Shown: positions 15,990-20,306 of the stretch, piece by piece | How positions within the stretch are numbered: the stretch's first letter is position 1 | Layout: each line of letters starts with the position of its first letter | Assembly (NCBI RefSeq): GCF_013122565.1 | Contig: NZ_CP053258.1 | Reading direction: 5' to 3' (one strand) | Source of the DNA: Escherichia coli | GTDB taxonomy: Bacteria > Pseudomonadota > Gammaproteobacteria > Enterobacterales > Enterobacteriaceae | DNA: 64,000 nt | Position numbers and translations under genes: made by a program | Notes under the pieces: generated by a model | The model's database searches: none | Told to the model about the DNA's origin: nothing | Seen by the model: only the letters and a program-made list of their open reading frames with translations

Positions 15990-19142
<3,153 letters not shown>

Positions 19143-19160
19143 TACAACGTGTAATCACTA

Positions 19161-19183
19161 AGGCCGCGCAAGCGGCCTTTTTT
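19161..19183 (+). terminator. rho-independent terminator after acrB
   Basis: Stem aggccgc/gcggcct with loop gcaa followed by T-run tttttt. Confidence 0.8.
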
Positions 19184-19687
19184 ATGCATAACCTACGAAC
19201 ATTAAGGAGTAATTGAACCACCAACTCAGGATCTCATACGAAAACCAGTATTAACCACGGATAAAATTCATAAAAAATACTGATTGTTAGTTAATTTATA
19301 TTAAGTAGCGCTAATAGATTTAATAATCCATAATCATTTAGAGGCTATTCTTAATTATTTGCGGTAATTCTTTATTCATTCCTCGGTTATTACGTCATAT
19401 TCAGAGCAATCCTGGTATTAGTGTCACCAATGTCATCTGGCGATAATCCTGAAATGTTATGAACTGTTCGAGCAAACTGCTTTTACCTACTGCGGGTTGG
19501 TGCTAGTATGAAAAAGTGAGTCCTGTCCCGCTTCCTTCCTAATTGTAATTTTTCGTAATAATGCGATGAAAACCTGCAAAGAGTGGCTTATAGTTAAGCT
19601 AACAAACGAGAGGGCAAGTCCAGGTCAGTAAGTTTTTTCCATCCCGAAAGGTGTCCGTTAGTTCAACCACTAAGAAGGGGACGCGTT

Positions 19688-20062
19688 ATGGATGAATACT
19701 CACCCAAAAGACATGATATCGCACAGCTTAAGTTTCTCTGTGAAACCCTGTATCATGACTGCCTTGCAAACCTTGAAGAAAGCAATCATGGCTGGGTAAA
19801 CGACCCAACCTCGGCGATCAACCTCCAGTTGAATGAACTGATTGAGCATATTGCGACCTTCGCACTTAATTACAAAATTAAGTATAATGAAGACAATAAG
19901 CTCATTGAGCAGATCGACGAATATCTGGATGACACCTTTATGTTGTTCAGTAGTTATGGTATTAATATGCAGGATCTTCAGAAATGGCGGAAGTCAGGTA
20001 ATCGACTATTCCGTTGTTTTGTCAATGCGACAAAAGAGAATCCTGCGAGTTTATCTTGTTAG
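19688..20062 (+). CDS. tomB: Hha toxicity modulator TomB (YbaJ)
   Basis: 124-aa [43 protein letters not shown]...; immediately upstream of hha. Confidence 0.93.
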
Positions 20063-20087: not shown

Positions 20088-20306
20088 ATGTCCGAAAAAC
20101 CTTTAACGAAAACCGATTATTTAATGCGTTTACGTCGTTGCCAGACAATTGACACGCTGGAGCGTGTTATCGAGAAAAATAAATACGAATTATCAGATAA
20201 TGAACTGGCGGTATTTTACTCAGCCGCAGATCACCGCCTCGCCGAATTGACCATGAATAAACTGTACGACAAGATCCCTTCCTCAGTATGGAAATTTATT
20301 CGCTAA
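20088..20306 (+). CDS. hha: haemolysin expression modulator Hha (H-NS co-regulator)
   Basis: Internal start of ORF 19842-20306 gives [72 protein letters not shown] (72 aa). Confidence 0.95.

Follow-up and report, generated by a model that had tools for sequence, protein, structure and literature searches.

The 64-kb window of Escherichia coli DNA analysed here carries acrB, tomB and hha in that order on the + strand, and the region under study is the gap between the first two genes. From the acrB stop codon to the ATG of tomB this gap measures 545 bp (19143-19687), or 504 bp when counted from 19184, the position just past the acrB terminator hairpin at which the interval flagged in the initial annotation begins. 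The genes, the terminator and the spacer that follows it are these:

15993-19142, + strand: acrB coding sequence, a 1049-aa open reading frame to which K-12 and other E. coli annotations give this name
19160-19187, + strand: intrinsic terminator of acrB, an 8-bp stem (AAGGCCGC/GCGGCCTT) followed by a T-run, located by terminator scan
19188-19260, no strand assigned: unconserved spacer, with a per-column identity to the window of about 0-0.2 over 77 Enterobacteriaceae gaps
19688-20062, + strand: tomB, a 124-aa open reading frame identified from annotation; TomB is 89-100% identical across Enterobacteriaceae
20088-20306, + strand: hha, identified from the sequence and equal in length to K-12 hha (219 bp)

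The overall layout agrees with the initial annotation, which had described an acrB terminator followed by a long, visibly AT-rich gap devoid of open reading frames of 60 aa or more. The terminator hairpin combines a stem with 6 GC pairs among its 8 bp and a 4-nt loop (GCAA) with a downstream TTTTTTAT, and is kept across 77 species in the alignment described below; the terminator scan returned no second terminator inside the gap. The GC content of the gap is 0.382, as compared with 0.514 for the whole 64-kb window (38% versus 51%), and falls to 0.357 over 19184-19539. The minimum over 200 bp, 0.28-0.29 at about 19181-19399, ranks third among the deepest troughs of the 64 kb, and just 0.4% of all 200-bp segments are as low. 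In the list of open reading frames, those of at least 20 aa within or overlapping the gap run to 21-44 aa and none reaches 60 aa, while RefSeq annotates no gene in the acrB-tomB gap of K-12.

To place the gap in a comparative frame, a TomB-based scan that took one genome per species was used, yielding 80 Enterobacteriaceae loci. Wherever both genes were present on such a locus, acrB lay directly upstream of tomB, and across the 77 species compared the gap spanned 435-559 bp at 35-40% GC. The 77 gaps were aligned with MAFFT and conservation was scored for each column. This analysis revealed a near-invariant proximal block (19540-19600), a 5' UTR kept from 19620 to the ATG and, further upstream, patchy conserved AT-rich blocks at 19263-19305, 19320-19334, 19398-19415 and 19452-19463. 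The resulting base-resolution conservation map of the gap over 77 Enterobacteriaceae species is a modestly useful by-product. During the search we also noted a contig labelled E. coli SCPM-O-B-8794 (NZ_JAATUR010000032.1), with a gap of 556 bp that is strongly divergent from the window; since it clusters apart from E. coli, together with Escherichia sp. E1V33 and E. whittamii, it probably represents a cryptic-clade Escherichia.

The tomB-hha promoter and the 5' UTR

The proximal part of the gap contains the following features:

19545-19559, + strand: CpxR-type direct repeat GTAAT-TTTTC-GTAAT, directly upstream of the -35 hexamer and beginning 56 bp upstream of the start site
19566-19594, + strand: tomB-hha promoter found by promoter scan, with -35 ATGAAA (19566-19571), a 17-bp spacer and -10 TATAGT (19589-19594)
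19601-19687, + strand: 87-nt tomB 5' UTR, running from the start site mapped in K-12, with the Shine-Dalgarno sequence AAGGGGA at 19675-19681
19639-19645, + strand: CCAUCCC, complementary to AUGGAUG at the start codon in Escherichia or to the Shine-Dalgarno GGGGAUG in other genera

The promoter scan returned a single + strand candidate within the gap, a sigma-70-type ATGAAA-17-TATAGT with 9 of 12 consensus matches. Its hexamers are exactly those reported for tomB-hha by Shimada et al. 2014 (PMC3946193), and they are kept across the family, the -10 being invariant in all 77 species and the -35 reading ATGAAA or GTGAAA in 74 of them. Kim et al. 2012 (supplementary file 2; PMC3415461) mapped the K-12 tomB start site to 480019 (NC_000913.2), with an 87-nt UTR; their upstream 50-mer is found verbatim in the window, which puts the start at 19601, 7 nt past TATAGT. 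In the same study, Klebsiella pneumoniae ybaJ is transcribed from this promoter too (TTTCGTAATAGCACGATGAAAT...GGATTATAGT), its UTR being 97 nt long. For these comparisons, window coordinates were taken as 500396 minus the K-12 version 3 coordinate, version 3 being version 2 plus 776 (a relation verified against tomB and the start site). With this conversion, a sigma-S RNA polymerase ChIP-seq peak labelled tomB (PMC4447067) falls at 19505-19700, over the promoter.

The initial annotation called the gap a leader of about 500 bp. This is inaccurate, since only the last 87 nt (19601-19687) lie downstream of the mapped start, leaving 19184-19600 upstream of it. The evidence on additional transcripts is likewise negative: E. 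coli and Klebsiella each have a single mapped start in the gap, the tables of PMC3415461, which cover limited conditions and gene-assigned sites only, list no other start site in the gap for either E. coli or K. pneumoniae, and the gap has no Rfam match.

Kim et al. 2012 additionally assigned two start sites to hha, 115 and 16 nt upstream of that gene (PMC3415461). The first, at about 19973 in the window, falls inside tomB and the second, at about 20072, in the tomB-hha spacer; given these two sites, hha may also be transcribed without tomB. The promoter scan picked out a TTCGCA-18-TATAAT match inside tomB as well (19859-19888).

Within the 5' UTR, CCAUCCC is nearly invariant, CATCCC(G/A) being found in 64 of the 77 species. 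Its pairing partner differs between genera: in Escherichia the Shine-Dalgarno reads GGGGACG and codon 2 (GAU) gives AUGGAUG as an alternative partner, while Citrobacter has both. Partition-function folding predicted that CCAUCCC pairs with the ribosome-binding region, with a probability near 0.66 in the window and of similar size in many species. Across 44 species 95.5% of the helix cells are paired, the pattern of an anti-Shine-Dalgarno or anti-start element. Among the same 44 sequences no helix pair changed on both sides (RNAalifold covariation term -0.16), and RNAalifold retained just a 3-bp CCC:GGG contact in the 5' UTR. That CCAUCCC may occlude the ribosome-binding site is best regarded as a reasonable hypothesis. 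Three further ideas about the UTR were discarded or left as not established. A generally structured 5' UTR was rejected, as the minimum free energy shows no extra stability relative to shuffled sequences (z = -0.57); an RNA thermometer was rejected, as the predicted pairing is about equal at 25, 37 and 42 C; and an inner hairpin (UUAGU/ACUAA), in which the Enterobacter clade exchanges UA for GC but whose pairing is lost in 10-11 of 44 sequences, was not established.

Regulatory inputs and conserved upstream DNA

Published work ties several regulators to this region. Genomic SELEX placed an H-NS site in the tomB/acrB spacer (PMC3946193). Garcia-Contreras et al. 2008 (PMC2408971) found that a fragment from -198 to -1, which corresponds to 19490-19687 in the window, drives a GFP reporter with increased activity in an hha mutant and is repressed on Hha overproduction, and that Hha can be cross-linked in vivo to its own promoter. 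The DNA further upstream has the AT content expected of an H-NS-bound silencing region (GC 0.357 with a trough of 0.28, against 0.514 in the window). PdhR has likewise been linked to tomB-hha, with a PdhR box cited in PMC7660256. A PdhR site in the gap itself was rejected, because the published box, AACGGAATCGACCAGCT, sits within the acrB coding sequence (18672-18688); some 920 bp separate this PdhR-box-like sequence from the tomB start site downstream.

A further input is suggested by the direct repeat next to the -35 hexamer. The CpxR motif is quoted in PMC13353760 as TTTAC-N4-8-TTTAC, that is, GTAAA-N4-8-GTAAA on the other strand, and the window copy, GTAAT-N5-GTAAT, matches it at 4 of 5 positions in each repeat. 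GTAAW-N5-GTAAW occurs in 64 of the 77 gaps, as compared with 0.5 expected from shuffled sequences, and in the window it lies inside a near-invariant block (19540-19562). The orthologous ymoB-ymoA operon of Yersinia offers a close parallel in that, by the reported distances, both operons have a CpxR-type motif beginning 56 bp ahead of the proximal start. In Y. pseudotuberculosis, where that proximal ymoB start is TSS2, CpxR-P bound a 200-bp ymoBA promoter fragment carrying the motif in gel shifts, and ymoBA promoter activity rose upon CpxR activation (PMC13353760); Choudhary et al. 2020 are cited in the same paper for CpxR control of E. coli tomB. The 5' UTRs of the two operons are similar (106 nt for Yersinia ymoB, 87 nt for E. 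coli tomB). They differ in that ymoBA has another start, 188 nt from the ATG, whereas no second one is listed for E. coli or Klebsiella. By its sequence and position, 19545-19559 is likely to be a CpxR site.

The conserved distal DNA contains three further features:

19263-19334, + strand: distal AT-rich module with CTGATTG, TTTATATT and a -10-like AATAAT (19322-19327), from the conservation profile and anchored alignments
19346-19375, no strand assigned: two copies of ATTCTTA/ATTCTTT resembling RcsB-type half-sites, read by eye from anchored sequences; ATTCTTAATTA is kept in other genera
19401-19414, no strand assigned: RcsB-box-like pseudopalindrome TCAGAGCAATCCTG with an RGA-N4-TCY core, syntenic in 77 of 77 gaps

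The pseudopalindrome resembles the RcsB box, for which Huesa et al. 2021 (PMC7913699) give the consensus TN(G/A)GAN4TC(T/C)NA. A strict version of this box (T.RGA....TCY.A) was present in 41 of 77 gaps, as compared with 2.9 expected from shuffled sequences, and most genera carry a 14-16 bp palindrome, TAAGAATATTCCTA (CCAGGAATATTCCTGG in Yokenella), at 315-335 bp upstream of the tomB ATG. With the RcsB and RcsAB boxes of flhDC, cps, rprA and osmC the palindrome shares half-sites of the TAAGA/TAGGA type, which RcsB contacts at flhDC (PMC5829831), and the 4-bp spacing. In many genera it fits the RcsB consensus exactly, being sharper outside Escherichia; the window copy has an intact core and one mismatch (the last A replaced by G). 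Its position differs from that of these boxes, about 200 bp ahead of the known start site being an unusual distance for RcsB action; the copy in E. coli also departs from them in its terminal mismatch and its non-AT centre. A full-text literature search gave no obvious published report of a link between Rcs and tomB-hha.

Within the distal module, 48 of 77 species have CTTATTG where the window has CTGATTG. At the hexamer corresponding to 19322-19327, about 75 bp upstream of the palindrome, 35 of the 77 species read TATAAT and 13 read TATCAT, and A2 and T6 are retained in 66. A CTTATTG...AATAAG inverted repeat (19280-19318) precedes this hexamer. Conservation of the hexamer raises the possibility that tomB-hha is also transcribed from a distal promoter at about 19322-19327, with a start near 19334 and a leader of about 350 nt, or by read-through from acrB, so that most of the gap would be 5' UTR, regulated at the RNA level, with the RcsB-like box serving as a roadblock. 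Yersinia ymoBA does have a further start upstream of its proximal one (PMC13353760) and RcsB boxes downstream of starts have been linked to repression (PMC7913699), both of which would fit such an arrangement, but the Yersinia site is only 188 nt from the ATG and not about 350. Moreover, the -35 is weak, the hexamer in Escherichia is AATAAT or AATAAC, no start is listed at this position in E. coli or K. pneumoniae (again among gene-assigned sites under limited conditions), a strong terminator follows acrB, and the proximal 198 bp suffice for both activity and Hha control (PMC2408971). We consider a long leader unlikely, although the -10-like look of one conserved block leaves some small chance of a distal promoter active under certain conditions, and take 19322-19327 to be an unexplained conserved element and not a promoter, since no start has been reported there in E. 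coli or Klebsiella and its -35 is weak.

A still less probable reading, which we judge very unlikely, is that the gap holds an unannotated small protein, encoded by a 15-codon frame at 19460 or a 21-codon frame at 19566-19631, or an independent sRNA. It draws on the block around 19460. There, many genera carry CTAAC-N3-ATGAW-N3-TAAGG at fixed spacing, about 240-262 bp upstream of tomB (19452-19475 in the window), while Escherichia, Salmonella and Citrobacter retain only ATGAW (ATGAA at 19460 in the window); the element looks non-coding. An ATGA(A/T) syntenic with 19460 is kept in most genera, often with TAAGG at fixed spacing, and a review credits an sRNA with positive control of Shigella sonnei tomB mRNA, sRNA1600 being said in review literature to act on tomB mRNA in Shigella. 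Against this, the frame at 19460 has no preceding Shine-Dalgarno sequence, and the frames range from 5 to more than 17 codons, with peptides that vary freely between genera; with neither frame nor peptide conserved, this candidate was rejected. The second frame was rejected because its ATG is the -35 hexamer: as it begins there, ahead of the transcription start, the mRNA does not contain it. As for an RNA gene, there is no terminator in the gap and no RefSeq feature in K-12, and a search for known RNA families in Rfam at E<=10 gave sub-threshold noise on the acrB terminator only.

The acrB-tomB gap is, in sum, the ordinary upstream control region of tomB-hha, already characterised in E. coli, and it very probably has a standard composition of a terminator, one promoter, an untranscribed AT-rich platform for H-NS and Hha, and short conserved motifs. 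In the mechanism we propose, acrB transcription would stop at the intrinsic terminator (19160-19187), and tomB-hha would be transcribed from the single sigma-70/sigma-S promoter ATGAAA-17-TATAGT, starting at 19601 with an 87-nt 5' UTR. The AT-rich stretch of some 350 bp further upstream would be untranscribed regulatory DNA, serving as a platform from which H-NS and Hha exert negative feedback on the promoter, and the CpxR-type repeat by the -35, together with the RcsB-type palindrome about 200 bp upstream, would be putative response-regulator sites. In this scheme, the anatomy, the length shared with K-12, the pattern of conservation and the agreement with the published start site and promoter come from the present analysis, and published work supplies the H-NS site, the autorepression by Hha, the link to CpxR and the sigma-S ChIP peak; we infer both the role of the distal AT-rich DNA in H-NS nucleation and the identities of the proteins at the conserved motifs.

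The initial annotation had suspected complex regulation here, and had set this against a gap of K-12 length with a single mapped promoter and no additional transcripts. Essentially the latter is what we find, as the length is identical to that of K-12 and one promoter is mapped. The suspicion itself is partly upheld, in that published work connects H-NS, Hha, CpxR, sigma-S and PdhR with the operon; the support for such multi-factor regulation comes from the literature and not from anything unusual in this window. As originally flagged, the feature matters little, being a normal, well-conserved tomB-hha upstream region of no extra length.

The platform proposed here resembles H-NS/Hha-silenced regions such as bgl, proU and hly in its AT-rich upstream DNA, its reported H-NS site, its repression by Hha and the occurrence of natural IS insertions between upstream DNA and core promoter. 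Unlike those regions, the tomB-hha gap is core DNA, vertically inherited and kept across 77 species, and not horizontally acquired; its H-NS site is reported, in the literature examined, without a base-resolution footprint or nucleation map.

Judged by the alignment, the cross-genus conservation of the distal blocks (19263-19334, 19401-19414 and 19452-19463) exceeds what a purely compositional H-NS platform would need. One possible, and for now tentative, explanation is a distal regulatory module shared across genera, made up of the RcsB-type palindrome, which keeps a constant spacing of about 315-335 bp to the ATG, the ATTCTTA repeats and the TATAAT-like hexamer. Together with the CpxR-type repeat, such a module would put the H-NS co-regulator Hha and its antitoxin under Rcs and Cpx envelope-stress control, and it would be partly eroded in Escherichia; separately, CCAUCCC might occlude the ribosome-binding site and so set the translation of TomB and Hha. 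The candidate sites would then link Hha, which partners the global silencer H-NS, to regulators of the envelope-stress response, namely Cpx and perhaps Rcs. Our literature search found no earlier description of a distal conserved module. The distal motifs and CCAUCCC are leads for the tomB-hha field and not proof of a new kind of element.

Variation of the gap in E. coli

By megablast, the gap was found in 5,423 of 5,426 complete E. coli genomes, at full length in 5,408, and nearly all of the matches among those listed span exactly 545 bp. Searches with each half of the gap showed that 26 and 27 of the 5,423 genomes are without an intact, one-piece distal or proximal half, respectively. Counting this gap alone, it is thus disrupted in roughly 1% of E. 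coli genomes.

Three of the listed E. coli genomes carry IS1 in the gap, in three different places, and represent independent insertions. In strain C 236-04A, an IS1 flanked by a duplication of about 9-10 bp (19522/23-19531) lies 35 bp upstream of the -35 and parts the core promoter from the AT-rich upstream DNA. The IS1 of strain TUM11356 duplicates 19409-19417 and splits the RcsB-like palindrome. In strain TUM13773, IS1 replaces 19251-19630, which has cost this strain its distal region and promoter as well as the start site with the initial 30 nt of the UTR. A transposon insertion in the same gap is also among those recovered after 700 generations of laboratory selection (PMC5010248). The recurrence of IS1 in natural isolates, in one case with deletion of the native promoter, could alter Hha levels and thereby H-NS-dependent silencing.

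The window itself matches K-12 closely. In MG1655 (NC_000913.3), acrB ends at 481254 and tomB starts at 480708, which again gives a gap of 545 bp, and end-to-end alignment with the window yields 7 substitutions, 0 indels and 98.7% identity. The K-12 tomB-hha promoter region thus has the same length, hexamers, start-site context and flanking genes, and differs by its seven substitutions (at 19169, 19432, 19464, 19465, 19489, 19499 and 19669 in the window), all of which lie outside the promoter hexamers, the CpxR-type repeat and CCAUCCC. An insertion or rearrangement specific to this strain and lengthening the gap relative to K-12, for which there spoke the impression of extra length in the initial annotation and the occurrence of IS1 here in some natural strains, is refuted by this gapless alignment of two 545-bp gaps and can be set aside.

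A minor point concerns the allele of the window strain. The proximal half of its gap (19431-19687) is matched at >=99% identity in only 119 genomes, as compared with 3,572 for the distal half, and the strain therefore carries a rarer promoter-proximal allele, with substitutions at 19432, 19464-5, 19489, 19499 and 19669; PT62, an isolate from a pigeon, matches it at 100%. Three complete E. coli genomes were without any match to the gap, and two of the matching places were on plasmid-classed records.
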